Source: a virus. Taken from it: 46,602 nt of DNA. A program made the position numbers and the translations under genes. The DNA lies in the UHGV virus genome UHGV-0186543; one strand, 5' to 3'. This document shows, one piece after another, positions 1-46,602 of the stretch. How positions within the stretch are numbered: position 1 is the first letter of the stretch; every line of letters starts with the position of its first letter. Under the pieces are notes generated by a model that was not told the origin of the DNA, did no database searches, and worked only from the letters and a program-made list of their open reading frames with translations.

Positions 1-32
1 ATAGAGTATAACCGCGCCAAACATTCAACCTG

Positions 33-821
33 TCAAAATGCTGAATCAGCAACGGATACAGCCGACTTTTCCCCCATTAGCATCAATTTATCCAGCGTCA
101 TACTTCGCAGGTTGTCGCTGTGGATCACCAGATACCCTGCCCGCTCAGCGATCTCTTTGAAAGCGTCAAAGGTCATCAGATGTTCGCCTTTGGCAACATG
201 GCGCATCCTGGTCACTTTTCCATTTTTGATAGTGGTGATAAAAGAAAAATCCGGAATGGTTGGCTGATTTTCATCGAGTAGCAGGCAGTGGATGTATTCA
301 ATCGCCTCTAACATTTGCGTCTGTGACAGTTGTTCTATGTGAGAGACGGCGAAACGTTGGTGAATCATGGTGTAGGCATCGGGATACATCATGCCTTTCT
401 TACCGACCAGCATATTAACGGCATCACGTAAGGGAGTACGGTCATCGGTAGTTGTACTCCGCCTCTCTGGGCGCTGGCTAAAATAACAATCTTCAAGCTT
501 TTCGAAAACTTCCCAAGCCTGTTCTGTTTCCAGCATTTTGGCATGGCGAGCTGCGCCGCGTTCTGTCCAGAGAATGAGGGATCGGGTATGTTTAGCAACT
601 GACTGACTATCTGTCAGTCTGTTTTTGAAGTCGCGTAATTCATTACCTTCCAGCTTAAAAAAATGCTTTCCTACGACAAATCTGGCGATGTTGCGCTTGA
701 AGTTTTGCTGGATACCATTTACTTCCGTGCCATACAAACTGGCAAGCAATTCAGTAGTGATGACGGGAAGTTGGTTATGATGTAGCGGAGAAAGGGATTC
801 CGCAGATATTTGGATTGTCAT
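33..821 (-). CDS. ant: antirepressor (ORF6N/Bro-N-like N-terminal domain plus KilA-C/Ant-like C-terminal domain)
   Basis: ORF 33..869. The N-terminal LPVITTELLASLYGTEVNGIQQNFKRNIARFVVGKHFFKLEGNELRDFK is typical of ORF6N antirepressors. Start placed at ATG 821 (GAGG 8 nt upstream); ATG 851 or TTG 869 are also possible. Confidence 0.75.
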   Translation of the reverse strand: MTIQISAESLSPLHHNQLPVITTELLASLYGTEVNGIQQNFKRNIARFVVGKHFFKLEGNELRDFKNRLTDSQSVAKHTRSLILWTERGAARHAKMLETEQAWEVFEKLEDCYFSQRPERRSTTTDDRTPLRDAVNMLVGKKGMMYPDAYTMIHQRFAVSHIEQLSQTQMLEAIEYIHCLLLDENQPTIPDFSFITTIKNGKVTRMRHVAKGEHLMTFDAFKEIAERAGYLVIHSDNLRSMTLDKLMLMGEKSAVSVADSAF

Positions 822-982
822 CGCAGTGGCCTCACTTAGTGTTTTTTTCATCACCACCAGCGACGCCAATCATCTGGTGGTGAACTGTGCAGGGTTGGCG
901 TAACCGGCTAAGTGAACCCGGCGCTTCCGCAGAAGCCCCCACACAGCCCACCATAATGCGAATGTGGCCGTGCCTAACACAT

Positions 983-1005
983 AAAAAAACCGCTAACGCG
1001 GCTAT
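983..1005 (-). terminator. intrinsic terminator upstream of ant
   Basis: On the minus strand, hairpin AGCCGC-gtta-GCGGTT is followed by TTTTTAT. It lies between the 73-aa ORF and ant. Confidence 0.55.
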
Positions 1006-1093
1006 GCGTCACTTAGATATCCGGGACGCCAATCCCGGCAACCGATTTTGCGGCTGCGCGGAAACTATAGCCCCGGGCTTTTTCTAAGTCAAT

Positions 1094-1315
1094 TCAATCA
1101 ACTTCAAACCTCCGGTGTTCACATTCCATACACTCAACGGGAACATCATCGCGATGCAAGTCCACATATCCGACCCGCTTATACAACTCAATAATGTCCG
1201 GTAACGTGACCAGATGTTTTTCCGGTTCCAACACCTCAGCCCTGGTTACTTTGTAATCTGAAATATAGAGCACTATCCGCCCGTTCCGTGGTAACTCCAG
1301 TTTATCGCCAAACAT
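1094..1315 (-). CDS. hypothetical small phage protein (73 aa)
   Basis: ATG-started ORF in the minus-strand early-right operon. No recognisable motif. Confidence 0.6.
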   Translation of the reverse strand: MFGDKLELPRNGRIVLYISDYKVTRAEVLEPEKHLVTLPDIIELYKRVGYVDLHRDDVPVECMECEHRRFEVD

Positions 1316-1389
1316 GTCCTTTCCCTCCGGGAAACCAATGATATTGACGATATTACACCCACAACGATTCGTTTTACGTCACTCCGCAA

Positions 1390-1506
1390 TCACCATACAT
1401 ACGTACCAATCCGTACATTCCCACCACAAAAATGGCATTCGGCGGGCACTGGTAATGGATTTTTAACGCGTGCTATTGCCTTGCGACGTATTTTCAACTC
1501 ACTCAT
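1390..1506 (-). CDS. 38-aa ORF, possibly a truncated zinc-ribbon protein
   Basis: The ATG overlaps the stop of the upstream gene (ATGA). Peptide MSELKIRRKAIARVKNPLPVPAECHFCGGNVRIGTYVW carries one CxxC and stops abruptly. It is below the ORF-track size cutoff. Confidence 0.3.
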   Translation of the reverse strand: MSELKIRRKAIARVKNPLPVPAECHFCGGNVRIGTYVW

Positions 1507-1727
1507 ACAGCCTCCCTGCTCTCAAATGGGCGAATATTGGTTGGTTCTCCACACGGAATAGCCCAACCCAGCCAGGTAAATATTTTCAGGTCACACATCG
1601 CGTCATACCGTTCGCCAGGATTCACATCCACCATGCTGCAGGCAATTTCATATTGTTCACCATTATCAGTCAGTGCGATCTGGTCATTAATAAACCGGGG
1701 CACAAATGCCAGAAAAAGTTCTTTCAT
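1503..1727 (-). CDS. hypothetical phage protein (74 aa)
   Basis: ATG start with a 4-nt overlap with the upstream gene, in operon. Confidence 0.65.
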   Translation of the reverse strand: MKELFLAFVPRFINDQIALTDNGEQYEIACSMVDVNPGERYDAMCDLKIFTWLGWAIPCGEPTNIRPFESREAV

Positions 1728-2035
1728 GAAATCCTCCGCTCAAAATAAACATACTGATTCACCGCACCGATCGACATTTCGAGTTTTTCCGCGATATCCT
1801 GGCGATTAATACCCGACTGATGTAATTCCCTTGCCAGCTCGATATCCTCCTGGCGGTATTTCACTGACTGGTGATAATTACCCCGCAGATACATACAGAT
1901 TTTCAACTCGCGCGCTTTTGTGCGTACCGCAGCACCGGTTCTTCCAATAAGCTGCCCTATACGTTCAACTGTCATGCTGCCCGCACATTGTTTGATGATT
2001 ACGACTTCCGCACGCACCCACCGTTTGTATTTCAT
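1724..2035 (-). CDS. small helix-turn-helix protein (103 aa)
   Basis: Two HTH-like segments (MTVERIGQLIGRTGAAVRTKAREL and INRQDIAEKLEMSIGAVNQYV). Overlapping start/stop with neighbours. Confidence 0.65.
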   Translation of the reverse strand: MKYKRWVRAEVVIIKQCAGSMTVERIGQLIGRTGAAVRTKARELKICMYLRGNYHQSVKYRQEDIELARELHQSGINRQDIAEKLEMSIGAVNQYVYFERRIS

Positions 2036-2268
2036 TGCTCCATCCCCCCTCTCCAGTAGTTCAGACGCTCTCTGAAAAATTCCCGGTACGTATCCGGCGT
2101 CATTCCGATTTGCTCAATCACGCTTCCCCTCGGAATACGTTTCTCAAAGAGTTGGCGGATCAGCGTCGCCGCTCGCATGTCGTAGTGCTCTTTAAGCAGG
2201 TATTCCTGAGGCCATTTGGCGCGGTTGTGTGGTAAGCCGGGCGGCAGGTAATCTGATTGCCCTGCCAT
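2032..2268 (-). CDS. hypothetical phage protein (78 aa)
   Basis: ATG start, tightly packed in the operon. Confidence 0.6.
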   Translation of the reverse strand: MAGQSDYLPPGLPHNRAKWPQEYLLKEHYDMRAATLIRQLFEKRIPRGSVIEQIGMTPDTYREFFRERLNYWRGGMEQ

Positions 2269-2269
2269 A

Positions 2270-2680
2270 TCACGTCCCTTTCTTTGCTATCGGAGTGATG
2301 GAACTCAGCAGCAGGCGACAGCGACCGGGCGCGCCAATGCGCTGTCCGGTTATCTTGTCGTAAGTTTCATGCGGTGAGGCACACCAGGTTGTCGCTGTTT
2401 CGTGGAGTTTCACTTGCCGCTCACCATTTCTGCGAATCGCGATCCCGATGTGCGTTTTACCCTTACATTTCACTGCTGGCGCTGCGGCTACGGATGCCTG
2501 ACGGGCAGGCTGAGCTGGTGTTGAAAAATTGCCTGCTTTGGGTCTTGGTACAAAAACCGCACGAGTGCGCGCACGTGGCCCGGCGTTCATATTCCACAAA
2601 ATGACGTCGAGATAGTTTTTACCGTCGTCTATGTGTCCTTTGTCCGACGGGTACTCTAATTTGCCTGAAATGGTGGTCAT
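2270..2680 (-). CDS. hypothetical phage protein (136 aa)
   Basis: The ATG is preceded by the recurrent leader CCGAGGAAAGACCA. Confidence 0.6.
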   Translation of the reverse strand: MTTISGKLEYPSDKGHIDDGKNYLDVILWNMNAGPRARTRAVFVPRPKAGNFSTPAQPARQASVAAAPAVKCKGKTHIGIAIRRNGERQVKLHETATTWCASPHETYDKITGQRIGAPGRCRLLLSSITPIAKKGT

Positions 2681-2718
2681 TGGTCTTTCCTCGGTTATTT
2701 CACGCTGGTCATGCGTGG

Positions 2719-4110
2719 TTAAAATGGGTCCGTATTAAAGTTTTTGTTTGAATACCGTTTTTCACGTTTTCTCGGTTGCTCTGCCTCCTTCTGGATGCGT
2801 AATTTTTCGCGTGCTACGTGTTGATCAATTGGCAGGAAATGCCCATTCCGGAATTCCTGATAAATAATTTCACCTGCCCCGCCAGAACGGTTTTTACCGA
2901 TAATCACCTCGGCGATACCCTTTGCAGGTGAATCAGGTGTGTAAACTTCATCGCGGTACAAAAACAAAATGCTGTCAGCGTCCTGCTCAACACTGCCGGA
3001 ATCGCGCAGGTCCGACATCACCGGGCGACGCTGGCCAGCAGGTCGAGAATCCACCTGGCGGGAAAGCTGGCTAAGAGCAAAAACAGGGGTATGCAGACGC
3101 ATGGCCATAGTCTTCATGTTGCGGGAGATATGCCCGACAGCGAGATCGTGGCGCTCGGCCTTCGGTTTTTTGATCAGGCCCATGTAATCAACACCAATCA
3201 ACTTCAGGTGCGGATAACGGCGTTTATGAGTCTCTGCAATGGCGCGGATCTGCTCAATCGTCAAATCAGTGGCATCAACAATCCAGATATCGCGATCCTG
3301 CATGATTGCAAGCGCGGCGGTTAATCTGGTCAAATCCTCATCGTCCATTTCTTTTGGATTACGCAGACGCGACGTGGACATATTCCCAGCCCCGGCAACG
3401 GTACGTTCAACAATCTGCTGAGCGCCCATTTCCATGCTGAAAAACAGTGCGCCGCCGCCATCTGCGGTAACGCCATCGATAATCTTCAGGGTAAATTCCG
3501 TTTTCCCCATGCCTGGACGACCGGCAACCACAACAAGGTCGGTCATGTTGATACCGCCCAGGGCGACATCCAGATCCTCGACTCCGGTTTTCAGCATCAT
3601 TTCCTGCGCGTCGCCAGACATCCGTTTATCAACGGTGTCAATGTAGAGCGGTAACAGCTCTTTGATGTGTACCGGCTGGACTGTGCCGGTAGCGGCGCTC
3701 ATATCCAGCACCTGAGCAACATGAGATTCAATAACCTCATCACGCTGACTCTGGTTTACAGCGTTACGGATACCATCCGCGCCAGATTGCAACAATGCCG
3801 CCATTTTGCGGCTCCGCCATGCCCGCACCATTTTCCCAGCATAGCCTTTCAGATTCGGTACCGTTGCCGGGATCCGGGATATTTGAGACAGATCCGCAAG
3901 GCTGGAACCGCCCAGCGCTTCGCTGATAAACAACATGTCGATCATGCCGTTCGCCAGTGCCTGCTTTTTGATTTCGCTGAAAGCGCGACGGTGAAACACG
4001 ATGCTGAAGGCTTCCTCCGGAGTAGTGGCAATCACATCAAACGCGTCAGGCGTCGCGCCACCGTTAATCAGACCAGCGAGAACGATCGCTTCCAGTTCTT
4101 CTGGATTCAT
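2719..4110 (-). CDS. dnaB: replicative DNA helicase, DnaB family
   Basis: 463 aa with Walker A GRPGMGKTEF, DnaB C-terminal motifs (ALSQLSRQVDSR, LRDSGSVEQDAD) and a DnaB-like N-terminal domain. Confidence 0.9.
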   Translation of the reverse strand: MNPEELEAIVLAGLINGGATPDAFDVIATTPEEAFSIVFHRRAFSEIKKQALANGMIDMLFISEALGGSSLADLSQISRIPATVPNLKGYAGKMVRAWRSRKMAALLQSGADGIRNAVNQSQRDEVIESHVAQVLDMSAATGTVQPVHIKELLPLYIDTVDKRMSGDAQEMMLKTGVEDLDVALGGINMTDLVVVAGRPGMGKTEFTLKIIDGVTADGGGALFFSMEMGAQQIVERTVAGAGNMSTSRLRNPKEMDDEDLTRLTAALAIMQDRDIWIVDATDLTIEQIRAIAETHKRRYPHLKLIGVDYMGLIKKPKAERHDLAVGHISRNMKTMAMRLHTPVFALSQLSRQVDSRPAGQRRPVMSDLRDSGSVEQDADSILFLYRDEVYTPDSPAKGIAEVIIGKNRSGGAGEIIYQEFRNGHFLPIDQHVAREKLRIQKEAEQPRKREKRYSNKNFNTDPF

Positions 4111-5171
4111 AATGCCCCTTCCCTGGTTTTACGCAGTGTTTCTGGCTTCATCAGGTAATCAAACCCTGCCCGCCAGCCGGTGCGATATTCGCCGCCGAAA
4201 TAGAAGTCTGGGGCGTTATCGCGGAATTTTTCGAAGTAGCCGATAAATGCGCCAAGAGTTTGCGTGCGCATATGTGCCAGCAGGCGCAGGATTGCCCGAC
4301 GGCGGTCAGTATCAATTTCAGCTATAGGTAGCAGGTCGCCCAGAATCTCGTTGTAGCCCTTCACAACTTCAGCAGGGTCAACGGCAGCCTCAGCAGTGGC
4401 CCACGTCTCAGCGTCAGCCAGGTATCCGTCAAACCGGTTTACGCGGCAAATGTTCGCAGGTTTCGGAACGCTTCCGCTACGACGGCGCCATGTCGCAATA
4501 ACCCAACGAATTACTAACTGAATCTCAGCCACGCTGTAACCAGCGCGGGTGGTGGTGGCAGTTAGCAGCATGACAAACGGTTTAACGTCGCGGCAGCGGG
4601 TACCGACTTTCTCGTTGTAGTAGTTCAGAGCTTTTTGAGCGTCAGCGAGAATGATTTCCTCGCCCTCCCCCTTTTGGGGGTAAGGGGGATCTTTTATCTC
4701 TGTAGTACTCTCTGTTGTATTCTCTGTAAGAGATTGGGTCATTTTGACCTTAGCGCATGGGTCAACTTGACCTGATGCTTGGGTCACATTGACCTCTTCG
4801 ATTGGGTCAACTTGACCTAATCGATTGGCCACAGGGAATGTTGTCTCTTCAATCTTACATAACTGGGCATAATTGATTGAATACCACTTGGTTTTATCCC
4901 AGGCATCACTGTTAAAGTTCCCAGTAAATACCACATTCAATTTTTCCAGATTGGCCAGCACGCGTTTTATTGTCGACTCGCTCCAGAACGGGAATTGTTC
5001 TTGCCAATCGGTCACACTGTTGTACACCCAGTGGCGATTTTCGAAGAAATTTTGAGATGAATTCAGCCAGTAGTGGATTTGCTGTAGAACGATGGCTTCA
5101 TTCAACCCTATAGTGCATGCCAACGTGGGCAGGACCTGAAGGGGGTTTTCGTTAATCAGCAAACGACTCAT
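4107..5171 (-). CDS. replication initiator / replisome organizer (lambda O analogue)
   Basis: Located directly upstream of dnaB with an ATGA overlap. Contains four internal iterons, like lambda O. Start moved to ATG 5171 (GGAG 9 nt upstream; the track start 5207 is TTG). Confidence 0.75.
   Translation of the reverse strand: MSRLLINENPLQVLPTLACTIGLNEAIVLQQIHYWLNSSQNFFENRHWVYNSVTDWQEQFPFWSESTIKRVLANLEKLNVVFTGNFNSDAWDKTKWYSINYAQLCKIEETTFPVANRLGQVDPIEEVNVTQASGQVDPCAKVKMTQSLTENTTESTTEIKDPPYPQKGEGEEIILADAQKALNYYNEKVGTRCRDVKPFVMLLTATTTRAGYSVAEIQLVIRWVIATWRRRSGSVPKPANICRVNRFDGYLADAETWATAEAAVDPAEVVKGYNEILGDLLPIAEIDTDRRRAILRLLAHMRTQTLGAFIGYFEKFRDNAPDFYFGGEYRTGWRAGFDYLMKPETLRKTREGAL
4735..4817. repeat. 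origin of replication iterons (4 x 15 bp)
   Basis: TGGGTCAttTTGACC (4735), TGGGTCAacTTGACC (4758), TGGGTCAcaTTGACC (4780) and TGGGTCAacTTGACC (4803). Spacing is 22-23 bp. Each has internal dyad symmetry GGTCA/TGACC. Confidence 0.8.
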
Positions 5172-5173
5172 AC

Positions 5174-5398
5174 TCAGATCTCCAGAGCTTCGGCTATCTG
5201 ACGACAACCGGCTTCATAGTCCGCATTGCTCAGCCCTTTGTCGCGCAACTCGACCTTCCTGGATTCATACTGCTCCCACACCGAAAGCGCGGCAGCCATA
5301 CGCCCATCAAAAATAGGTTGGATCTCTGCAACATGTGCCGGGCGTCCATTCAGGTGCCAGCCGTTACGCCAGGTAATGCGGTCAATATGTCTTAACAT
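5174..5398 (-). CDS. hypothetical phage protein (74 aa)
   Basis: The ATG is preceded by CCGAGGAAAGACCG. The stop lies 2 nt before the initiator gene ATG. Confidence 0.6.
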   Translation of the reverse strand: MLRHIDRITWRNGWHLNGRPAHVAEIQPIFDGRMAAALSVWEQYESRKVELRDKGLSNADYEAGCRQIAEALEI

Positions 5399-5437
5399 CG
5401 GTCTTTCCTCGGTATAAGTTAAACGCTGGTCAGGCGC

Positions 5438-5914
5438 TCATGCATGGTGGCCTTGCGCAGTGCTTATCACTGCCCCTCGCGTCGCTACCAGCGCCGCTAT
5501 TGCTTCGTCAATTTCCTGGATAGTTAACTCTGGCGCGAAGTGGAGATGTACAGCGTTAATCGCTTCCACCCCTTCTTTTGCCGCCAGCGTTGCCAGCAAA
5601 ACGGGATCGCCCGGCGACTCCAGACGCGCCCGCCGTTCTGCGGGTAGCACGGCTTTCATCACACTGGCCAGCACCTGAGTTTTTCGGCGCGCCGCCGTTG
5701 TCTCGCCACGTAACCAGCGAAAGATTTTCTGCCGGTTGTTGTTGATGGCTCTCCAGTCCACGTTACCGTCCGCGTCCTCAAATTCATGTAGTCTCAACTC
5801 ATCATTGCGTCCCTGACTGAACCAGGCCCGGCAGATTTCAATTGTGACGAGTTCCTGCCCTGCCCTTGCCGCCCAGGTCAAAATCTCTTTTTGTAATTCC
5901 TCTGGGTTTTCCAT
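5438..5914 (-). CDS. YdaT-family protein (CII-like regulator position)
   Basis: 158 aa immediately downstream of the cro-like gene. The segment KIFRWLRGETTAARRKTQVLASVMKAVLPAERRARL resembles my recollection of Rac YdaT (YHRWLKGETKTQREKIQKLIPAILAILPRELRHRL). Confidence 0.55.
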   Translation of the reverse strand: MENPEELQKEILTWAARAGQELVTIEICRAWFSQGRNDELRLHEFEDADGNVDWRAINNNRQKIFRWLRGETTAARRKTQVLASVMKAVLPAERRARLESPGDPVLLATLAAKEGVEAINAVHLHFAPELTIQEIDEAIAALVATRGAVISTAQGHHA

Positions 5915-5973
5915 AGCGTCTCCTGTCGCTAAAAATTGATTACGCTTAATCAGATGTAATAAGCCGCCCTTTG

Positions 5974-6171
5974 CTAAGCTTTTTCATGTTTTGGAACATC
6001 GTAAAAAGTCGGGTCATATTTCAGTGCTCCGTTAGTGATATGGTCGAGTCGAGCAGCTCGCTTTTCAGGAACTGTTGCCCCCCAACGAGTAACCGCCACT
6101 TGAGATATACCCAGCACCTTGGCTGTGGCTGTCTTTGAACCAAAAAAACTAATAACCGTCTCTGTTTTCAT
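5974..6171 (-). CDS. Cro/YdaS-like HTH regulator
   Basis: 65 aa with HTH KTATAKVLGISQVAVTRW. Divergent from the repressor gene. SD GGAGGG upstream of the ATG. Confidence 0.8.
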   Translation of the reverse strand: MKTETVISFFGSKTATAKVLGISQVAVTRWGATVPEKRAARLDHITNGALKYDPTFYDVPKHEKA

Positions 6172-6182
6172 AATCCCTCCAC

Positions 6183-6235
6183 GTAACTTTTGTTAGCAAC
6201 ATAAATACTAACGAAAGTTATGTCAAGTTAACTTA
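6183..6235. promoter_or_regulatory. immunity switch: PR promoter plus operators
   Basis: Minus strand: TTGACA (6221-6226), 17 nt, TATGTT (6198-6203). Operators of type CTAAC-N4-GTTA at 6184-6196 (reverse-complement reading) and 6208-6220. Palindrome AAGTTAACTT at 6225-6234. Confidence 0.7.
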
Positions 6236-6239
6236 TATT

Positions 6240-6653
6240 ATGAGGATGAAGAATTTGATGCTTAGCGACCGTTTATCTCAAAGACGCAAACAGCTTGGTC
6301 TAACCCAACAACAGCTTGCTGATATGGTTGGAAGATCGAGTGTGAGCGTTTTTAAATGGGAAAGCGGACAAAATGAACCAAAGGGTCAGAACTTGCTGGC
6401 TTTGGCCAATGCACTTAAGTGTTCTGCCACATGGCTGCTTTTTGGTGACGAAGACCAGGCACCAACTCCGGTAGACGAATTACCAACAGAGCTGGATTCA
6501 CGTCAAAAAAGATTGTTAGAGTTATTTGATTCATTACCCGAGTCAGAAAAAGAAAAGCAACTAATTGAATTAGAAGATAAAGTTGAAAACTTTAATCGTT
6601 TATTTGAAGAGTTACTGGTTACCAGAAAGAAACTAACCCCCACCAAAAAATAA
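6240..6653 (+). CDS. CI-type repressor, XRE-family HTH, no S24 peptidase domain
   Basis: 137 aa. HTH LTQQQLADMVGRSSVSVFKWESG. Acidic, coiled-coil-like C-terminus. Too short for, and lacking, a LexA/CI autocleavage domain. Start could be 6240 (nearly leaderless) or ATG 6258. Confidence 0.85.
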   Translation: MRMKNLMLSDRLSQRRKQLGLTQQQLADMVGRSSVSVFKWESGQNEPKGQNLLALANALKCSATWLLFGDEDQAPTPVDELPTELDSRQKRLLELFDSLPESEKEKQLIELEDKVENFNRLFEELLVTRKKLTPTKK

Positions 6654-6656
6654 AAT

Positions 6657-6692
6657 AAAGGCAATGTTTTCAATGCATTGCCTTTATTTTTA
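6657..6692 (+). terminator. intrinsic terminator after the repressor gene
   Basis: AAAGGCAATG ... CATTGCCTTT stem (6657-6666 / 6676-6685) followed by ATTTTTA. Confidence 0.75.
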
Positions 6693-6701
6693 CCCCAAAT
6701 A

Positions 6702-6752
6702 CTAACCTTTGTTATAAAACGCCTTGCACATAAAATTACCTTTAGTTATATT
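6702..6752 (+). promoter_or_regulatory. candidate PL promoter with operator-like sites
   Basis: TTGCAC (6724-6729), 17 nt, TATATT (6747-6752). CTAACctttGTTA at 6702-6714 matches the PR operators. A weaker TTACctttaGTTA at 6737-6749 has an N5 spacer. Confidence 0.55.
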
Positions 6753-6800
6753 CATTCCATCAACAACGCTTACCCAGCGGCAGTTGTTCAGAAACAAGTT

Positions 6801-6823
6801 CTGACAGCCGGAAAGACGGCACC
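6801..6823 (+). repeat. 23-bp direct repeat, copy 1
   Basis: ctgacagccggaaagacggcacc, identical to 7254-7276. Confidence 0.9.
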
Positions 6824-7108
6824 AAATTTTGCGCGTCGGCGCCAACACGATGACAGAGGGAAAGACTTCACCGGCATATGGCACATGTGTCGAAGCGGTC
6901 TGGATGGAAGCGGAGCCTTAACGCGTTGTCTCCATAGCAGGTAGCCGGAATGTGCAAGCCACAGCCAGGTATGAGCGATTGATTCACCATCAAGGCGATA
7001 CGGTGTGACCACCAGGGAAGAGTCCTGGCTACAACACGAGAGCGCACTTCATCGACTCAACTTTGAGCTTTGTCGTTAAATTTTGAAATGGCGGAGTGCG
7101 CTCCCGGT

Positions 7109-7173
7109 TGTGGTGAACAGGTGTTTAACGGGAACTCCCTGCCCGTTACCCGGTTCGATTCCGGGCGCTACAC
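7109..7173 (+). ncRNA. tRNA-like element (T-arm plus acceptor-like stem), not a canonical tRNA
   Basis: CCCGG-TTCGATT-CCGGG T-arm at 7149-7165. 7166-7172 CGCTACA can pair with 7109-7115 TGTGGTG (two G-U pairs). The interior is only 33 nt, with no D-arm and a 9-nt central loop. Confidence 0.3.
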
Positions 7174-10792: not shown

Positions 10793-11017
10793 ATGCTGCG
10801 ATGGCAACCGGGAGCAACTCTGCTCTCCGCATTTGATATCAAAATTGGCCGACTGTCGGCCAGCGTCAGGAAACAGGCTGTGACCGAGTCTGATATTGCC
10901 CGTGCCTGCAAGGCGGCAGATGACGCAATAAGCTACATAATGAGGAAAGACCATGAGAAGCGATCACGACATAATCACCAGAGAAGAAATGGTCGAGCTG
11001 ACGGGAAGCCCACTTAA
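10793..11017 (+). CDS. hypothetical protein (74 aa)
   Basis: ATG with GGAGG 7 nt upstream. The 3' end overlaps the xis-like ORF by 65 nt in another frame. Confidence 0.45.
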   Translation: MLRWQPGATLLSAFDIKIGRLSASVRKQAVTESDIARACKAADDAISYIMRKDHEKRSRHNHQRRNGRADGKPT

Positions 11018-11216
11018 ATCAAAGCAATGTGAGGCTCTTCGCCGGGCTGGAATTTTCTTCATGGAAAGGGCTGACGGGCACCCAAAAACAACCTGGGGCC
11101 ATTTCATGAACCCAATAAAATTTCGCAATTTACAGGAGGTGACGACGCGAAAAGATGATGAACCTGATTTTGGAGCAATATTTAATGGCCGGAAAGAGAA
11201 AGAACCCAGCAGATAA
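10953..11216 (+). CDS. excisionase-like protein (DUF4224-type)
   Basis: 87 aa. ITREEMVELTGSPLKSKQCEALRRAGIFFMERADGHP matches the DUF4224 pattern usually found just upstream of phage integrases. Leader TGAGGAAAGACC abuts the ATG. Confidence 0.65.
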   Translation: MRSDHDIITREEMVELTGSPLKSKQCEALRRAGIFFMERADGHPKTTWGHFMNPIKFRNLQEVTTRKDDEPDFGAIFNGRKEKEPSR

Positions 11217-12201
11217 CTGGATGCCGCCTCGTGTTTACCAGGGCAAAGCGGCCTACGAATTCAGGAATAAAGATAACAAAGCGATACGCCTGTGCGCATT
11301 GGATGCGCCACGATCAGCCGTATGGCTGGCATATGAAAAAGCGGTCGGTGACGAAAAAGAAAGAAATACTTTTCAGGCGCTCGCGGAACAATTCATGACC
11401 TCCCCTGATTTTATGGATTTGGCAGTCGAAACCAGGAAAGACTACACAAAATATTCCGGAAAAGTTCTGCCTGTCTTCGGGAAGATCGACCCGGATAAAA
11501 TCAAACCTGAACATATTCGGCGCTATATGGATCAACGCGGTTTATCAAGCCGAACTCAGGCAAACAGGGAAAAAAGCTTTATGTCCAGGGTATTCCGTTG
11601 GGGTTATGAACGAGGTTATGTCCAGAGGAATCCTTGTCAGGGAGTTAAGCAGTTTAAAGAGACAGCACGCGAACGTTATATTACGGATGAAGAATATCAG
11701 GCCGTTTATGAAGTATCTCCTGATGTTGTTCGCGTGGCAATGGAGATTGCCTACTTATGCGTGGCCAGACAGAGTGATGTACTTTCATTGCAGAAAGACC
11801 AGCTGTTCGATTCCGGGATCTACATTCGTCAGGGAAAAACCGGCGTTAAGCAAATCAAAGCCTGGTCGCCTCGTCTGCAGAAAGCGATAGCTCTGGCTCG
11901 TTCTCTGCCATTAAAACCGGGAATCAGTAGCCTGTTTGTGATTCATCAAACTACCGGAGGCAAGTACACCCGTGATGGTTTTAACTCTCGTTGGCGTGAT
12001 GTCAAAGCGGCAGCACAGGAAAAATATCCTCATCTGCAAATAGACTTCACATTTCATGATCTGAAAGCAAAAGGTATCTCTGATCTGGAAGGCAGCCTGG
12101 AAGAGAAGCAAGCAATTTCCGGGCATAAGAACCCACGACAGACAGCAGCATATGACCGAAAAGTTAAAGTAGTGCCCGTAGTTGGTGGCCAGAGAAAATG
12201 A
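11185..12201 (+). CDS. int: tyrosine site-specific integrase
   Basis: Start at ATG 11185 (MAGKRKNPADNWMPPRVYQGK). Catalytic-domain motifs ARQSDVLSL, HDLKAKG and GHKNPRQTAAYDR. Adjacent to the tRNA-derived att core. Confidence 0.9.
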   Translation: MAGKRKNPADNWMPPRVYQGKAAYEFRNKDNKAIRLCALDAPRSAVWLAYEKAVGDEKERNTFQALAEQFMTSPDFMDLAVETRKDYTKYSGKVLPVFGKIDPDKIKPEHIRRYMDQRGLSSRTQANREKSFMSRVFRWGYERGYVQRNPCQGVKQFKETARERYITDEEYQAVYEVSPDVVRVAMEIAYLCVARQSDVLSLQKDQLFDSGIYIRQGKTGVKQIKAWSPRLQKAIALARSLPLKPGISSLFVIHQTTGGKYTRDGFNSRWRDVKAAAQEKYPHLQIDFTFHDLKAKGISDLEGSLEEKQAISGHKNPRQTAAYDRKVKVVPVVGGQRK

Positions 12202-12261
12202 ATGATGATGCGTCCAGAGAAAAATCATCTTCGGACGCATCTTCGGAAATGAAAAAGAAGA

Positions 12262-12290
12262 TACAAAAAAACCACCCGAAGGTGGTTTCA
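12262..12290 (-). terminator. intrinsic terminator downstream of the tRNA-derived segment
   Basis: Minus strand: ACCACC-ttcg-GGTGGT followed by TTTTTTTG. Would terminate a tRNA gene reconstituted upon integration. Confidence 0.65.
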
Positions 12291-12331
12291 CGACACTGCT
12301 TATTGCTTTGATTTTATTCTTATCTTTCCCA

Positions 12332-12387
12332 TGGTACCCGGAGCGGGACTTGAACCCGCACAGCGCGAACGCCGAGGGATTTTAAAT
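12332..12387 (-). other. att core: 3'-terminal 56 nt of tRNA-Leu(UAA) (leuZ-type), partial tRNA only
   Basis: The reverse complement reads TTTAAAATCCCTCGGCGTTCGCGCTGTGCGGGTTCAAGTCCCGCTCCGGGTACCA. This is the anticodon loop through CCA of enterobacterial tRNA-Leu(UAA) as I recall it. The 5' half of the tRNA is absent. Confidence 0.8.
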
Positions 12388-12608
12388 TGTTCGTTTTGTG
12401 CAATAAATTCAAATGATTATGGTAAATTATCCGGACATAATGGTGCGTGTGAATATCAAATAATCATATAGTTATGACACGTCTTACTCATCATCTTCTG
12501 AAGGTTTTTGGCAAAAAATGGTGATGTTTTGCGCCTTGATGTGACCAAACAGTCAGGAGCAAAGTGAGGTAAAGGGGTATGAGAAAAACTCACATACCCC
12601 AACACAAA

Positions 12609-13028
12609 TTAAAACGCAGTTGGGTGAATGCCATATTCACCGTTTGATCCATACCCTATGCGATACATCAAAGTACGATCTGTTGTCACCTTGCCCGCCT
12701 GCTCACTCATACCACCGCCACATACCCCTTTAGGCCACGCGCTGAAGACATGATCACCAATCGTTGGGTATACAACGACTTTCTGAGCTGTACCTAAATC
12801 TGCCACCTCTTTACCATCAACATAAACACGGGAAAAGCACGCGCTTCCAAAGAACCCCGAGTCACGCTTGATGATCACCTCTCCCGTACCGTCTCGTTTT
12901 TCGAGTAACACGGTACTGATAATTTGTTTTTCAGGAACAGGAGTGGCTTGTTCATTTGAGACAGGTTTTGTAGCACAACCGACAAGAGCAAGCATAATCC
13001 CACAGGCAAGAGCATTTTTAACGACCAT
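12609..13028 (-). CDS. lipoprotein moron (139 aa)
   Basis: Signal peptide plus lipobox LALVGC. Lies between the last tail gene and att, with its own upstream spacer of about 165 bp. Confidence 0.75.
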   Translation of the reverse strand: MVVKNALACGIMLALVGCATKPVSNEQATPVPEKQIISTVLLEKRDGTGEVIIKRDSGFFGSACFSRVYVDGKEVADLGTAQKVVVYPTIGDHVFSAWPKGVCGGGMSEQAGKVTTDRTLMYRIGYGSNGEYGIHPTAF

Positions 13029-13194
13029 GTTTGAAAACTCCCAATATTAAAAAATGTCAGCATCTAACGATAACAACGTTCAGCACCAGAGACTCTTCGT
13101 TCTCCGGCTTACGCCTAAAAATATCGCAGGAGCCGTTTGCAGTCGACAGTCGTTAATACTAAATTCATACCCGCCACCGGCTCGCCGAGCCAAT

Positions 13195-14238
13195 TTACTC
13201 CAGAGACAGCCGAACCGAAAAGCCGTTTTCAGCAAGCGTCAGGCTCAGCGTGTTGATAGTCCAGTCCCGGTCCTCCTCGGTCCCGAATCCTTGAGTTGTG
13301 ACTTTGCATTCTGCTGTCAGCGACACTAAATCGAGCGTCGCTGGCGTCGTGTACGTCATAGAGAACTCTTTTTTAGCTGCACCGCCCTTAAGCCCTGGTG
13401 CAGCTTCTTTCGCTGCGTCGAGCGACGGCTCCACTGCTGGCCACTCGATTACAGGATCGCCGCCACTGCCTGTACGCAATTCTTTAATCTGCCCTGTTGC
13501 CGTATCGTGGTATTTGATCAGATACGTCGGCTCCGGATTTTCGCCACCGCCGCCACTATCACCGCTTTGTCCATTTCTCGAATAGCCCCAGCTGGAGTTA
13601 TCACGACGAGTTAGCGTGTAGTGCTGGAGCGGAGCACCGCTAACTGATTCGCCCGCGCCGCGCGGCAGAAATATCCAGTACCCTCCTGCGGGTTTGCTCA
13701 CCGCATCGAATCGTGTTGCTAGTCTCGACATCAGGTGCATATCTGACTCACCGACTTGATCGAGCTGCGTGATAATGTTGTCTGCAAACCGCTTTGATAC
13801 GCGAGGTTTTAGCCCGTTATCGCTCGCTATTGTTGCAACGATATTGCTGACAGTGACGTCGCTCCAGGAGCGAGTTTTTTTGCTCTGAACTGTCGGAGAG
13901 CCTTTTGATGCGTTCATCGGAGCTGCTTTTGCTGTGAAATCAACTACCCGGGGTTCACCGCCACTGCTCGCACCATCAACGATGTATACACCCTTATCAA
14001 TTATCTGATTACCGAAACCGAGCCCAATACTGATTTTTACTCCGCGGGCCGGAATTTTCAGAGTTTCAGAAACGATTGCTACGCGTAATTCGTCTGTCTG
14101 TTTACTCGAACCACCATAATCTGTGAGCGTGATATTGATCAAACCTTTTCTTATTTTATCCGTGATGTTTTCATTATCAGCAGATATATAAAAATTGGGC
14201 TTCCATGCTTCCACGCCAGTATTTACGTAATCACTCAT
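13195..14238 (-). CDS. tail protein D (P2 gpD / late control D family)
   Basis: 347 aa, last gene of the P2-like tail block after gpU and gpX. Call rests on size, position and general family resemblance. Confidence 0.7.
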   Translation of the reverse strand: MSDYVNTGVEAWKPNFYISADNENITDKIRKGLINITLTDYGGSSKQTDELRVAIVSETLKIPARGVKISIGLGFGNQIIDKGVYIVDGASSGGEPRVVDFTAKAAPMNASKGSPTVQSKKTRSWSDVTVSNIVATIASDNGLKPRVSKRFADNIITQLDQVGESDMHLMSRLATRFDAVSKPAGGYWIFLPRGAGESVSGAPLQHYTLTRRDNSSWGYSRNGQSGDSGGGGENPEPTYLIKYHDTATGQIKELRTGSGGDPVIEWPAVEPSLDAAKEAAPGLKGGAAKKEFSMTYTTPATLDLVSLTAECKVTTQGFGTEEDRDWTINTLSLTLAENGFSVRLSLE

Positions 14239-20935: not shown

Positions 20936-21856
20936 CTACCCCATTTGCACGCTGAGTTTGATTTCTGTGCAGTGCGGGGCCTGTCCGACGCCAGCGATCA
21001 CATCCTCTGTTGGCGATATCAGAATCACACGCTCAGTGCCGTCACGGTGTATCGCATCGTAAATTCCCGACAGGGCTGCTGTCGCCCCGATTTTATGTTG
21101 TGTAGCCACGTATATAGCTAAATCGCTTTGTGCACCGTTGAGCAACACGTTCTGATCGGGACCGAGCCCCGCTACGATAACGGCTTCAACCCGGTAATTC
21201 AGGTTCGACGCAGGTTTTACTGTCACGAAATCAGTTAGTGGCCGAGTGTCGTCAGGAGACAGGGCCGCGTTCACTGTATTCAGTAGTGATTGTGGCGGAG
21301 TGCCGTCGCCGGTTCGCGACAGGACATACATATCGACGTATCCAGGCTGGGTCACGGGGGGGCCGTATGCCTGAGCAGACAAAACGTCTGGATCACTCGA
21401 TAGCGCGAAATAGTTATAGGCGTTCGTACTGCCGGCAGTATTCCGCGCGTACCACGATAGCTGTATGCGATGACGATACTCGTCGTCACTCTCGTAAACC
21501 GCCTCAGTCGGGGGAATTACATCGGGATTAGCTGGCGTTATCAACAGCCGCAGGCAGTCAAAATTAACGCCAATCTGGTCGAGGTCACTCCCTTTTGCAA
21601 ACGCGAGCAATACAGCGAGCATCCCCTGATTTACCCGGGCTGTAATAATGATTTCTCTGTATGCAACTATTTCCAGCAGTTTAACGGCCGGGTCTGACTC
21701 CAGGAGTGCGTTAAATTGTGGATATAATATCTGCAGCTCTGACAGTAGATTAGATTTAACATCTGAAAATAACGGGGTTTTAACGAATGCTGGCGGCGGC
21801 AGCAGACTCATATCAATAGTTTTCACTATCGAACTCTGAACTGTTGATGTTATCAA
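20936..21856 (-). CDS. baseplate protein J (P2 gpJ-like)
   Basis: 306 aa, between the gpW and gpI analogues. Confidence 0.8.
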   Translation of the reverse strand: MITSTVQSSIVKTIDMSLLPPPAFVKTPLFSDVKSNLLSELQILYPQFNALLESDPAVKLLEIVAYREIIITARVNQGMLAVLLAFAKGSDLDQIGVNFDCLRLLITPANPDVIPPTEAVYESDDEYRHRIQLSWYARNTAGSTNAYNYFALSSDPDVLSAQAYGPPVTQPGYVDMYVLSRTGDGTPPQSLLNTVNAALSPDDTRPLTDFVTVKPASNLNYRVEAVIVAGLGPDQNVLLNGAQSDLAIYVATQHKIGATAALSGIYDAIHRDGTERVILISPTEDVIAGVGQAPHCTEIKLSVQMG

Positions 21857-37902: not shown

Positions 37903-38119
37903 AGTAAATCATTTGTGCCAAATTATAAGACCACACCGTAAGCTTTTATATGCGTCCTATGGTTATAGCTCATATTATATGCTTCAAAAATATCTATTCT
38001 TTTGTTCTAACGTCAACACCTACCCTTAAAAGATTAATTCTCTAAGAATGAGAGAATGTTGTGTGTATTAGATAAGATATGAGCTGACACATCTATGGCG
38101 TGAAGACAAATTTAATCTG

Positions 38120-38200
38120 ACAGTCCACTTTTTTGCCAGAGCGGATATCGCAAGCGTTAAGTCAGATATTTGAAAACGCATCGTTATCCTGGTTGGGATA
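38120..38200 (+). repeat. R0, degenerate copy of the R repeat
   Basis: TCCACTtttttgccaGAGCGGA hairpin (38124-38146) aligns with the R3 hairpin. ggttgggatac aligns with the G(T/G)GGGAAC block. Confidence 0.5.
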
Positions 38201-38315
38201 CTTGCACTACTTTTAGGCGTACTGCTATCTTGCACAGTTATTCAAAGGTAATTTTTTCTTTATTAGTAGCCTACTTCCAGGGGCTTGTACAACTGACAAA
38301 ACGAGGGAGATCCCC

Positions 38316-39095
38316 ATGAGCAACAAAGATTTTTCACTTTTTTATTTTGCAACCATTGATCGGTCTTACTTCCTCGACAAACACAATTTTTATGTTGCTG
38401 AAGCCAGAAAGCGTCTATTTTCGCAGTTTAGCGATTCTGATCTTGAAGCTGATGCCAGGCAGAGAGAACAAGATTACTATGAGGCCGCCGGTAAGCGTTT
38501 TGACCCCGATTATGACGACGAAGGGGCTATCTGTGAACAGGCTCATGATGAAGGAATTTCACATTGGATTGCTCTCAGTGATATGAAAAATACGGTTTCA
38601 CTTGCTCTGACAGCAGGAATGTTTCATCAGTTCGACAAGGAACTTCGAGAGAAGTGTATCAGAGAATTCAGCCATTGGCTCGACGCTAAATCCGTAACAT
38701 CGATGATCTGGGACATTAGCTTCCCAAGGCTAATTGAAATTCTAGAATGGATTGGGATGGATATCACCAGCAAGGCTTATTACGAAAAAATCGATGCCTG
38801 TCGCCAAGTGGTTAATGTTTATAAGCACGGTGATGGCCATGCCCATCGGGTGCTTTCCGTCGCGCATCCTGAGTATTATCAGGATATCAATATTCCAAGA
38901 GGCTACAGATTTAGTCTACGTCATGAGCAACTTGAGGTTACAGAAACACAGTTTATAGAGTTTGCAGATGCGATTACAGCTTTCTGGAATGATATCCCAA
39001 CATACTGTATGCGCTCAGCTATTCGGGAAGAACCTGAATGGATAAATGGCGAATATAAAAAACATGAGAAGAAAGTTAAAATGCTTCAGGACTAA
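38316..39095 (+). CDS. orphan protein A (259 aa), function unknown
   Basis: ATG with GAGGGAG upstream. About 41% GC by eye. Flanked by R0 and R1. No confident domain (a RQVVNVYKHGDGH segment is only weakly HEPN-like). Confidence 0.7.
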   Translation: MSNKDFSLFYFATIDRSYFLDKHNFYVAEARKRLFSQFSDSDLEADARQREQDYYEAAGKRFDPDYDDEGAICEQAHDEGISHWIALSDMKNTVSLALTAGMFHQFDKELREKCIREFSHWLDAKSVTSMIWDISFPRLIEILEWIGMDITSKAYYEKIDACRQVVNVYKHGDGHAHRVLSVAHPEYYQDINIPRGYRFSLRHEQLEVTETQFIEFADAITAFWNDIPTYCMRSAIREEPEWINGEYKKHEKKVKMLQD

Positions 39096-39180
39096 AATTC
39101 TTGATAATAGCAAGTGTATCCTACATGTAGACATTTGCCTGCCGTGTCTTTTAGCTACCCTAGCTGCGAGAACAATTACG

Positions 39181-39286
39181 AACTTCCGCTCCTCGCTCAC
39201 AGCGAACTTTCAACTCAGTTAGCTTGCCCGCTTCGTACCAAAAGCGGGCATTGCTAACATCTATCTCCATCAATCTGTGGGAACAG
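39181..39286 (+). repeat. R1 structured repeat
   Basis: aacttccgctcctcgctcacagcg block, then an extended hairpin GTTAGC-tt-GCCCGCTT ... AAGCGGGC-att-GCTAAC (39218-39258), ending in gtgggaacag. Confidence 0.85.
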
Positions 39287-39573
39287 CTCGCCGTAATAGC
39301 ACATTGAATTCTATGTCTAAAAGCAGATGATCTGGTTTGCCGGGAAATTTACAAAATGACGGCGTCTCTTGTTAGAGATTCTCCCTGCTTCACACTGCTG
39401 ATTCTTCATGGATTTTAGTATAATTAGTGAAAAAAAATTTTTTGGTTGTTATCATATACATGAGGACTTCTTCAGAGGAACTGAGAAAAATTCGGGGATC
39501 ACTGAACACAATGACAATTAAGAAGATTAACTGTCTGGTAAGTGATTATTTTATTCATTAAAAAACAAACATC

Positions 39574-40236
39574 ATGATAATTGACTTTATAAAAAGCAAG
39601 GAAGCCTTGCTAATATTGGCAATAACTGTTCTATCTTATATGTCTGCAATTTCATTTGAATATGGCTATGCATATCATTTTGATTATCCTATGGAGTTTA
39701 TAACGTTAGATTCTAAATTTTTATTCGTGGGTATGTCATATTTATTTTTTAATATAATTTGTGTTATGTTGATGTTTTTTACTCCATGGCCTGAAAGTAA
39801 AGTAAAAGCAGTTAAAGTTACTGCAGTTACAGTTTTTATCATGATTGTTTTTATTGTTCAGTCTTATAGACATAAGACTGAATATGGTGGTTTTTTCGTT
39901 TTAAGTTTATCGATAGCAACAGTTACTTATATTATATACAAAATTGTTAAAAATCATAAACGTAATCCAAGTTATTTAATTTGGTCTGCAACCCTTCCCC
40001 TTATTGCCATAATGACATTTAGTTTCTTAATTGGTTTACAACAAGCGTCATTAAAAAAAGAATTTAGTTACTTTCATGATCAATCTAAAGACTACGTGAT
40101 TATTAGGTTGTATGACGGTAACCTTGTCGCTAAAGAAGTGAATATAAAAGAGCGCAAGCTAGGGAGTGAGATATTATATATACCTAGCTATAACCCAGCC
40201 CCTATAACGTTAAATAAAATTAAAATAGAACAATAG
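39574..40236 (+). CDS. orphan membrane protein B (220 aa)
   Basis: Very AT-rich. Four to five hydrophobic helices, then a roughly 70-aa soluble C-terminal region. Flanked by R1 and R2. Confidence 0.7.
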   Translation: MIIDFIKSKEALLILAITVLSYMSAISFEYGYAYHFDYPMEFITLDSKFLFVGMSYLFFNIICVMLMFFTPWPESKVKAVKVTAVTVFIMIVFIVQSYRHKTEYGGFFVLSLSIATVTYIIYKIVKNHKRNPSYLIWSATLPLIAIMTFSFLIGLQQASLKKEFSYFHDQSKDYVIIRLYDGNLVAKEVNIKERKLGSEILYIPSYNPAPITLNKIKIEQ

Positions 40237-40379
40237 ATTCATATAGTGGCCTTATGAAAAATAGGTCACTATCGTTGATATTTCATATGAATTTTTAACG
40301 ACCTTGGTAGTAAAATTATCGTAAATCCCCTACATAACAAGACCATTTACTATAGATCTGTTTTACTCTCAATAAAATC

Positions 40380-40480
40380 AACTTCCGCTCCTCGCTCACA
40401 GCGGACCTTCAGTTTTTTGTCCGCTTCGTGTCAGAAGCGGAAGTAGCTAACAACAGCCTATGTTGATTCAAGGGGAACAG
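40380..40480 (+). repeat. R2 structured repeat
   Basis: The first 24 nt are identical to R1. Hairpin TCCGCTTC-gtgtca-GAAGCGGA, then gctaac and aggggaacag. Confidence 0.85.
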
Positions 40481-40572
40481 GTCACTGGGTTAATCTAATT
40501 ATGTCCCTTTAGAACCATCTTTCTTAAGTGAATATATTTTCACTTTATTTTCTACTGCCTCAGTCATAAGGT

Positions 40573-41940: not shown

Positions 41941-42092
41941 ATCAGTTCCTTTTTACCAGGCTTCAGTCAGAGTACACTATCATTTTACATTTAAATGTAC
42001 TTCCAAGCATCATGCTGTTAGTGCTGGATTATAACACTTGGCACCCGTATGTTTGGATAACAAACTGCGTATAATCCTTGTGAGTTGTGATG

Positions 42093-42198
42093 TCTGTTTC
42101 TCGCTCACAGCGGGTCTTCAGTTGTTCGTCCACTCTGTGCCAGGAGCGGACATTGATTATTCCTCACTGTAAAAATCTTAATGCTAACTAGTGGGAAC
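42093..42198 (+). repeat. R3 structured repeat
   Basis: Contains ctcgctcacagcg, hairpin GTCCACTC-tgtgcca-GAGCGGAC, gctaac and gtgggaac. TATAAT at 42070-42075 lies just upstream, so R3 would be the 5' leader of the nuclease operon. Confidence 0.8.
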
Positions 42199-42220
42199 TA
42201 TAAGTTGTCAATTGACATGA

Positions 42221-43072
<852 letters not shown>

Positions 43073-43152
43073 CCAATATATGGCAGTAATGAATATTTCG
43101 GGGATCGTGTTTGCCGCGGTCACGGTTACCATTATTAGTGTGCTGAACTGAA

Positions 43153-44388: not shown

Positions 44389-44519
44389 TTAAATATTTTA
44401 ATCACCATCGTGCTGGCTGCCATCGCCTATATGGCGTTGCCTCATCACTCGAATCCGAATGCATAATCTTATCCGAGTGGGGAAAGTGCACCACCAAAAC
44501 ATCGAAACAGGAATAGAAA

Positions 44520-45080: not shown

Positions 45081-45533
45081 AAAATGAAGTAATATTAATA
45101 ACGCAATTGAATTTAAAAAAAATCAATGCCTACTCGGTGCCATATACAGCCATGGTTATTAACAGCAGGGAATAATTCCACACTGAAATTAAATGTCTGC
45201 CTTTTACAGTAGAAATAGTTTCTCCAGGACACTATCCATTGCCGGGCACAATCACTCGGGGTATAACGATATAAAATATGTTCATGATAGTGCAGGTTCG
45301 TATATTAAGTTCAGCAGCGAAAACATGCCTTACAGGTTTCCGGTTTTGGGAGCGTCGTTACAGGATCCTGCGCATACCGTTCCCATCTGTTGAATTAAAG
45401 GTTTCACAGCCTTTGCCGATATCGCCTTTTACCTTGCCTGTGATGCGTTCAGTGCTCAGCGTTGTTTACTGTAGCTCTCGGGACTGATTACAGACCGCGT
45501 CTTAAAAACCAATCCTTACTCTAAAGGGAATTC

Positions 45534-46457: not shown

Positions 46458-46602
46458 CTGAAGTTTCCTTCAAGCTGGCGCCTGGTGTTAACCTGGTGCC
46501 AGCTTAGTCATCAAGTACATACGTTACAGTTTTACATGGGCGGTACTTTGACAGAGTATTCGGCCTCGTGCTGGTTGTGACTAAATACCTTTTTAAGCGC
46601 AA

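Follow-up and report, generated by a model that had tools for sequence, protein, structure and literature searches.

In UHGV virus genome UHGV-0186543, a non-coding gap (12202-12608) lies between the stop codons of a plus-strand ORF (11155-12201) and a minus-strand ORF (12609-13028). The gap contains part of a host tRNA gene; this raises the question of why a virus carries such a fragment between its integrase and tail genes, and of which form of the genome the record represents. The window referred to below is the entire stretch of DNA analysed, 46,602 nt in length. The gap is very probably the attP of a temperate E. coli myovirus which integrates at leuZ, and the window one complete genome in unintegrated order. 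The site is textbook: an ordinary, well-formed attP of the tRNA-targeting kind. For annotation, this places the integration site at leuZ, on the yecA side of the glyW-cysT-leuZ operon, and supplies a 125-nt att block, the approximate extent of functional attP and the genome topology. With these, the 440 related prophages of complete E. coli genomes, a large number of them from ST131-type strains, can be delimited to the base.

The leuZ segment and its neighbours

The minus-strand reading of 12332-12387, ATTTAAAATCCCTCGGCGTTCGCGCTGTGCGGGTTCAAGTCCCGCTCCGGGTACCA, begins ATTTAAAATCCC and ends GGGTACCA. The original prediction took it for the anticodon loop through CCA of tRNA-Leu(UAA), with the 5' half missing and a terminator behind it, and proposed alignment to the host leuZ as a check. 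The alignment bears this out in each respect. All 56 nt are identical to leuZ of E. coli K-12 MG1655, where they correspond to linear positions 32-87 of the 87-nt tRNA-Leu(UAA) gene; the first 31 nt of the tRNA are missing from the window. The fragment opens with the base that closes the 5' anticodon-stem strand, followed by the loop TTTAAAA, the variable and T arms, the 3' strand of the acceptor and CCA. Identity opens one base ahead of the anticodon loop, at A31.

Identity to MG1655 extends past CCA and covers 125 of 125 nt (12263-12387). The predicted length of 56 nt is exact for the tRNA part, but the block of identity is more than twice as long. The extra 69 nt beyond CCA are the complete 67-nt 3'ETS-leuZ sRNA (b4759) followed by GT; this copy is identical to the MG1655 annotation at 67 of 67 positions and retains the ARN-rich stretch and the terminator. 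A promoter and terminator scan places a terminator-like hairpin with a T-run at 12289-12268 on the minus strand. Since identity continues through 3'ETS-leuZ, the terminator which follows the fragment is the host operon's own, copied into the phage. A perfect 125-nt match to a host gene excludes a chance origin.

No tRNA is called by ARAGORN or by Rfam (gathering thresholds) anywhere in the 46,602-nt window; this is consistent with a fragment lacking its 5' part and is no evidence against a tRNA fragment. No 14-mer of the 125-nt block has a second copy elsewhere in the window. In the free phage, the block has neither the tRNA 5' half nor the operon promoter. The scan finds one promoter-like site (12453-12426, minus strand, directed towards the fragment), fewer than the 2.3 in shuffled sequences; the match is not significant. 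When folded together, the fragment and the 3'ETS are no more stable than shuffled sequences (z=-0.8); the only robust hairpins are the terminator and the T-arm.

Int and xis had been predicted on one side of the fragment and the end of the tail operon on the other. Profile matches confirm this arrangement, over 10953-12201 on the plus strand and 12609-14238 on the minus strand (Table 1). Int scores 34.1 bits against PF00589 (cutoff 27.1) and 33.2 against PF22022 (cutoff 27), and aligns to lambda Int structures in the PDB (E=1e-8). Its start is likely to be ATG 11185, which gives 338 aa; this start is favoured because the Ints of phages mEp390, Fostie and ZF40 begin at the equivalent of residue 11 of the ORF, and because RefSeq has 338 aa in a lysogen. 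The int stop codon lies 61 nt from the 125-nt block, with the xis-like gene upstream of int.

Equivalents of lambda Int R212, K235 and H308 align in the window Int. GHK and AAY in its C-terminal segment presumably hold the equivalents of H333 and Y342; the printed alignment ends at residue 328. At the position of the lambda catalytic Arg311 there is a lysine (FHDLK) near residue 300 of the 348-aa ORF, in a part of the pairwise alignment which is of moderate confidence. This second arginine is as a rule near-invariant in tyrosine recombinases. The window Int shares its HDLKAKG motif, with lysine at the R311 position, with the Ints of mEp390, Fostie and ZF40. Despite this lysine the clade is evidently active, given its abundant lysogens and the viable phages mEp390 and ZF40.

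On the late-gene side, the lipoprotein-like ORF has no match in Pfam, NCBIfam or PADLOC; in the lysogen E. coli Z0117EC0036, no further prophage gene separates its homologue from yecA. Int, Xis and the lipoprotein ORF receive no specific name from NCBIfam. RefSeq names homologues of the gpD-like protein 'late control D / VgrG-Pvc8 family'. Directly past the stop codon of the lipoprotein-like ORF there is a hairpin with an 11-bp stem (GGGGTATGAGA/TCACATACCCC, 12574-12600) and a weak T tract. If this hairpin terminates poorly, late or moron transcription would enter the tRNA fragment and the 3'ETS copy and end at the leuZ terminator.

Table 1. Features at and around the attachment site (window coordinates)
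Feature	Position	Strand	Evidence and remarks
Excisionase-like gene (DUF4224), overlapping the start of int	10953-11216	+	Pfam DUF4224, E=1.1e-14; PHROG 1266 excisionase, E=9e-35
Tyrosine integrase gene, 338 aa from likely ATG 11185	11185-12201 (ORF opens at 11155)	+	Pfam Phage_integrase and Phage_int_M; PHROG 1, E=4e-51
P' arm, phage-specific, from int stop to block	12202-12262		Two exact tandem CATCTTCGGA copies; imperfect inverted repeat 12204-12244
3'ETS-leuZ copy	12263-12331 (sRNA 12265-12331; glyW-cysT-leuZ terminator hairpin 12268-12289; 2 further identical bases)	-	100% identical to b4759
tRNA-Leu(UAA) leuZ 3' 56 nt, A31 through CCA; tRNA part of attP/attB block	12332-12387	-	56/56; completes leuZ at attL in lysogens
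Anticodon-loop heptamer TTTAAAA, putative overlap (strand-exchange) region	12380-12386	-	Same leuZ start base in 4 phages; 29-nt crossover interval
P arm, phage-specific, non-coding, AT-rich (37% GC)	12388-12608		Candidate sites at offsets -114 and about -50; hairpin 12574-12600
Lipoprotein-like gene, possibly a moron; last ORF before attP on the late-gene side	12609-13028	-	PHROG 890 'lipoprotein', E=4e-52
P2 gpD-like tail gene, end of contractile-tail operon	13195-14238	-	PHROG 52 tail protein, E=3e-92; weak Pfam Phage_GPD match

Both arms contain candidate arm-type Int sites. The tandem copies of CATCTTCGGA in the P' arm (12226-12235 and 12238-12247) are the only exact matches in the window; when up to one mismatch is allowed there are five matches, three of which fall inside the 407-bp interval 12202-12608. 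The P arm holds a further candidate, CATCTTCTGA (12492-12501), at offset -114, and a degenerate inverted copy, TCCGGACATA (12430-12439), which agrees at 7 of 10 positions and lies at about -50. Each of four phages with homologous Ints has its own tandem direct repeat of about 10 nt just past the terminator: TCCGAAGATG twice in the window, TTCGCCAT four times in mEp390, (C/T)TTCATAAT twice in Fostie and TTCCTAATAT twice in ZF40. In all four, the tandem repeats lie at about +138/+140 and +149/+152 from the block start. The window, mEp390 and ZF40 each have a direct copy at -114/-113; mEp390 and ZF40 also have an inverted one at -49/-51, where the window has its degenerate copy. Conserved position combined with phage-specific, co-varying sequence is the pattern expected of arm-type Int sites, for which these repeats are candidates. 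If they are such sites, the functional attP would span about 12226-12501.

Lysogen junctions and integration at leuZ

When 11100-13100 is searched by megablast against 5426 complete E. coli genomes, the matches end exactly at window position 12387. They take in int, xis and an annotated intact tRNA-Leu, and a tRNA-Leu lies under the match in all 25 best matches listed. Int is present at 95% nucleotide identity or more in 440 of the 5426 genomes, in every case on the chromosome.

E. coli Z0117EC0036 carries a related prophage in the interval from leuZ to yecA. The order runs from int and xis, next to glyW-cysT-leuZ, through the early, late and tail genes to the lipoprotein ORF, after which comes yecA; identity to the window is 97-99.9% on the int side and about 90% on the tail side. 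Int and the tail genes had been expected at opposite ends of an integrated prophage. This is the case here: int lies beside leuZ, with the tail genes about 43 kb distant at the far end of the prophage.

A search for attL and attR copies of the fragment elsewhere in the source genome had also been proposed; in the related lysogen Z0117EC0036 such copies are found as a perfect 125-nt direct repeat flanking the prophage (1350-1474 and 45006-45130 of the extracted region L002, 43,656 bp apart). In a four-way alignment, attL consists of the host leuZ 5' part, the block and the int arm of the window, and an intact tRNA-Leu is annotated there; attR consists of the tail arm of the window, the block and host sequence from the yecA side. 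As read from this alignment, the two junctions are the reciprocal Campbell products of the window attP and the K-12 attB. The predicted attP thus has the recombinants expected of it.

The crossover can be placed more closely in another lysogen. In E. coli 2017C-4173W12 (NZ_CP030768.1), leuZ is occupied by a prophage whose Int resembles that of mEp390; attL has a T-stem pair of the phage type (tggg/ccca) together with a variant 3'ETS, and attR is of the K-12 type. With attL phage-type and attR host-type, the crossover falls within 29 nt, from A31 to the T-stem. This interval comes from a related lysogen of the mEp390 Int type; in the window phage, attP and attB are identical across the whole block. 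By analogy with the anticodon-loop sublocation class of tRNA att sites, reportedly defined by Williams in 2002, strand exchange most likely occurs in the TTTAAAA loop, which is flanked by the symmetric anticodon stem; the overlap is presumably exactly 7 bp.

These features make the following route very probable. The phage integrates at leuZ, the gene which closes the glyW-cysT-leuZ tRNA operon. Its tyrosine integrase would bind core sites around the anticodon stem-loop and arm-type CATCTTCGGA-like repeats around -114 and -50 and at +140 and +152 relative to the core, and strand exchange would take place at the anticodon loop or immediately 3' of it. By integration leuZ is split; the phage block provides a new leuZ 3' half, 3'ETS and terminator beside int (attL), and the displaced host copy of the block comes to lie beyond the tail genes, beside yecA (attR). 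Excision, aided by the DUF4224 excisionase, would restore the arrangement seen in the window.

Replacement of the block may also concern a regulatory RNA. 3'ETS-leuZ is a sponge for the sRNAs RyhB and RybB, located downstream of the tRNA (bioRxiv 10.1101/2021.04.25.441314; PMC13501541), and the features of the window copy fit the description in the first of these reports (10.1101/2021.04.25.441314). A functional sponge of this kind is transcribed behind its tRNA, freed by RNase E and paired with RyhB and RybB. In the literature searched, no paper links a prophage att block to the whole 3'ETS-leuZ sponge; searches combining leuZ with attP or integrase mostly returned author-name noise.

Prophages at leuZ would decide which 3'ETS-leuZ allele the lysogen expresses, since that allele is derived from the phage. 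The window copy is identical to that of K-12, so integration of the window phage is sequence-neutral. It is a doubtful proposition that phages of this Int clade, which carry a full sponge copy, use variant copies to rewrite the sRNA buffering of the host, a form of lysogenic conversion through non-coding RNA. If it holds, the sponge expressed after integration is the phage copy, and the variant prophage in 2017C-4173W12 is an example. The displaced copy at attR, which is co-oriented and lies just downstream of the late operon and the lipoprotein ORF, could be a second, phage-controlled source of sponge; for the window phage, integration would remain neutral as long as neither the attR nor the attP copy is expressed.

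In 2017C-4173W12, a lysogen of a siphovirus with an mEp390-like Int, the operon copy of leuZ has the phage-derived T-stem pair, and the 3'ETS-leuZ behind it is a variant: it has lost 2 nt and has substitutions within the ARN-rich, Hfq-binding stretch, with one further change in the terminator loop. The K-12-type leuZ copy is displaced to attR beside yecA (region L008, 48860-49130 and 6000-6500).

Phage type and form of the genome

By its gene content, the phage is lambdoid in the early genes and head and P2-like, with a contractile tail, in the tail genes. The window has an HTH repressor-like gene (6240-6653) and a lambda-type gpA terminase. Its tail genes are of the P2 type and include gpU (PF06995, E=4e-32), sheath (PF04984, PF17482) and the gpD-like gene; a 546-aa ORF in the tape-measure position between gpU and sheath matches PHROG 3654. 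No lambda-type non-contractile tail is found among them. In the prophage of Z0117EC0036, PGAP annotates Cro/CI, a DnaB-type helicase, Q, holins, gpW, portal, S49 protease, major capsid and FI, and the tail includes baseplate V/W/J/I. The early, Q/lysis and head regions of the window are 93-99% identical to this prophage. Q is a pseudogene with an internal stop in the prophage; the window is 97% identical there. The expectation that the two halves of the window together form one lambdoid gene set therefore holds for the single unit and for the lambda-type early, head and terminase genes, and fails for the tail.

Three overlapping direct repeats of 22-23 nt (TTGACCCAA...GGTCAA-like) lie in the gene upstream of the DnaB-type helicase in the Z0117EC0036 prophage (L002 9076-9165). 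The homologous region of the window is within about 4107-5207. These repeats may be origin iterons.

In BLAST comparison, the window is a simple rotation of the Z0117EC0036 prophage; 45133-46602 and 26-7168 map to adjacent prophage segments. The last 150 and the first 150 nt of the window align to the prophage continuously, with no gap and no terminal overlap. Because its last and first bases are contiguous in the related prophage, the window is, on this alignment, exactly one circularly permuted unit genome. With int, attP and the end of the tail operon adjoining one another and the window ends joining, the whole genome is in unintegrated (circular or circularly permuted) order. The opening lies in the accessory region, between an LprI-like gene and an ORF6N gene and away from cos and the terminase gene. 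The original prediction of a circularly permuted genome opened in an accessory island is thereby substantiated.

The accessory region contains further features. The stretch of about 38000-45100, which has no counterpart in the Z0117EC0036 prophage, holds an ORF (42221-43072, plus strand) matching the anti-phage defence system PD-T4-3 (PADLOC E=7e-138; Pfam LEM-3-like GIY-YIG), a 411-aa HNH_2 protein and unassigned ORFs of 259, 220, 455 and 186 aa. On the other side of the opening, Rfam identifies a C4 antisense RNA (873-958), isrK (983-1057) and a c4 a1/b1 target element (1018-1070) on the minus strand. This region (873-1070) lies directly upstream of the ORF6N-domain, antirepressor-like gene (ORF 33-869, minus strand). 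The set resembles a c4-ant secondary immunity module of the P1/P7 type, here in a phage whose early genes are lambda-like.

Records containing both arms of attP were sought in several collections. The megablast search of 11100-13100 finds none among phages (INPHARED), plasmids (PLSDB) or complete E. coli genomes. The junction itself was scanned for as a pattern of int arm, N125 and tail arm, in strict and relaxed form, which recovered the window itself as a control; there are 0 matches to the exact attP junction in IMG/VR, GTDB representative genomes and JGI metagenome contigs. Two IMG/VR contigs hold the P arm; both end inside the block, so neither can be assigned to a form. The free form is consequently without independent corroboration in the other public sequence searched.

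This absence bears on how the junction arose. An assembler or extraction tool could have joined the ends of an integrated prophage through a collapsed attL/attR repeat, giving a circle whose junction was never physical. Flanking repeats of 125 nt and 100% identity are long enough to form a cycle in a short-read assembly graph, and the product would be indistinguishable from a true attP; the record is moreover opened at an arbitrary point, away from cos and the terminase gene. Such a joint would nevertheless be the excision product, so that the nature of the site is unchanged. The phage also looks intact (int, xis, terminase, head, tail and lysis genes are present), the window contains no host DNA, and spontaneous prophage excision is common in lysogen cultures. 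A false circle is on balance distinctly improbable.

As the original prediction allowed, the int-att-tail junction could also be the internal, attP-like joint of two head-to-tail prophages. Such a joint is a real feature of tandem lysogens, and the window sequence alone is compatible with it. However, the window is exactly one unit, its ends abut to the base and it includes no host sequence, which would be a coincidence for a cut chromosome. Furthermore, int is present in 440 of 5426 complete E. coli genomes, and among the matches listed from the search of these genomes none has both arms around one block, so that no tandem lysogen with an internal attP is seen there. A tandem-lysogen origin is very improbable indeed and was rejected on the exact unit length and the absence of an attP junction from the E. 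coli genomes searched. On the same two grounds, the sequence comparisons favour a free or circular phage genome, and the source molecule was presumably in that state.

The chance that the fragment is a decayed phage tRNA gene or a random capture of host DNA, unrelated to integration, is negligible: phages often carry tRNA genes and pseudogenes and ARAGORN finds no intact tRNA in the window, but this origin is contradicted by the attL and attR structures, with lysogen junctions exactly at the block edges, by the position of the block beside int and xis, by the identical cut point in four phages with homologous Ints and by the annotation of the mEp390 equivalent as attP in GenBank.

Comparison with known attachment systems

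An attP directed at leuZ has close counterparts among known phages. The Ints of mEp390, Fostie and ZF40 are 61-64% identical to the window Int, and the xis-int-attP layout is common to all. Identity to leuZ starts at the same base in all four phages; each carries a 3'ETS-like spacer and a terminator.

In mEp390 (NC_019721), the site is annotated as a misc_feature, 'putative prophage insertion site (attP)', at 21481-21601, with the leuZ 3' fragment on the strand opposite to int. Its Int is 63% identical to that of the window, and its tandem repeats likewise lie just past the terminator, with more copies at -114 and -49. Unlike the window phage, mEp390 belongs to the siphoviruses (Hendrixvirinae); it has DinI and UmuD-like genes, and a tail-fibre gene adjoins its attP. 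Identity of the mEp390 block to E. coli leuZ/3'ETS is no higher than about 89%, the T-stem shows a compensatory change, and the repeat motif is TTCGCCAT where the window has TCCGAAGATG.

The T-stem change (cggg/cccg to tggg/ccca relative to E. coli) is found in the leuZ fragments of both mEp390 and Fostie, with an additional acceptor-strand change in Fostie. These differences suggest that another enterobacterial host was either the source of the mEp390 and Fostie blocks or the setting in which they evolved.

Pectobacterium phage ZF40 (NC_019522) has the closest phage Int in the collection (64%). The order of exonuclease, Gam-like gene, xis and int is the same, the leuZ-type 3' fragment has the same start point, and repeats lie at -113, -51, +140 and +152. 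ZF40 differs in host genus, in the diverged spacer after CCA and in its motif, TTCCTAATAT.

leuZ is a documented prophage site in E. coli, occupied by Sp13 in strain Sakai (PMC8190617) and by prophages in O121:H19 (PMC8767318). Peduoviridae phage 520873 (NC_049344) has the same 125-nt segment beside yecA. It differs from the window phage in belonging to the Peduoviridae, and the sole integrase beside its block consists of two short annotated fragments facing the other way. These prophages share the chromosomal locus of the window phage but are of different phage types.

The RefSeq record of 520873 opens with the host gene yecA. In the vB_EcoM records ON470596/604/624/627 (vB_EcoM-569R10 etc., about 20-27 kb), the match to the window is limited to a stretch which starts at the block and enters the tail genes; about 792 nt precede the block. 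These 'phage genomes' appear to be prophage-derived records in the attR form which include host DNA.

As in lambda, the integrase is a tyrosine recombinase, presumably with separate core and arm recognition, and candidate arm sites lie on both sides of a putative short overlap. The excisionase gene is upstream of int, and int adjoins attP between the early and late regions. Lambda differs in its target, which is intergenic (gal-bio) and shares a 15-bp common core with the phage, compared with 125 nt of a tRNA operon in the window phage. In addition, the P' sites of lambda lie about 55-85 bp from the crossover, compared with about 140-160 bp for the candidate sites in the window phage, and lambda has R311 where the window Int has lysine.

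tRNA genes are said to have been described as attachment sites by Reiter et al. in 1989 and Williams in 2002. Examples include P4 at leuX, P22 at thrW and HP1 at a tRNA-Leu gene. The window site resembles tRNA att sites generally: the block runs from a putative anticodon-loop crossover through the tRNA 3' end, the gene is regenerated, and int lies beside the tRNA 3' end. There is no difference in principle; the window block also spans a characterised regulatory RNA, 3'ETS-leuZ.
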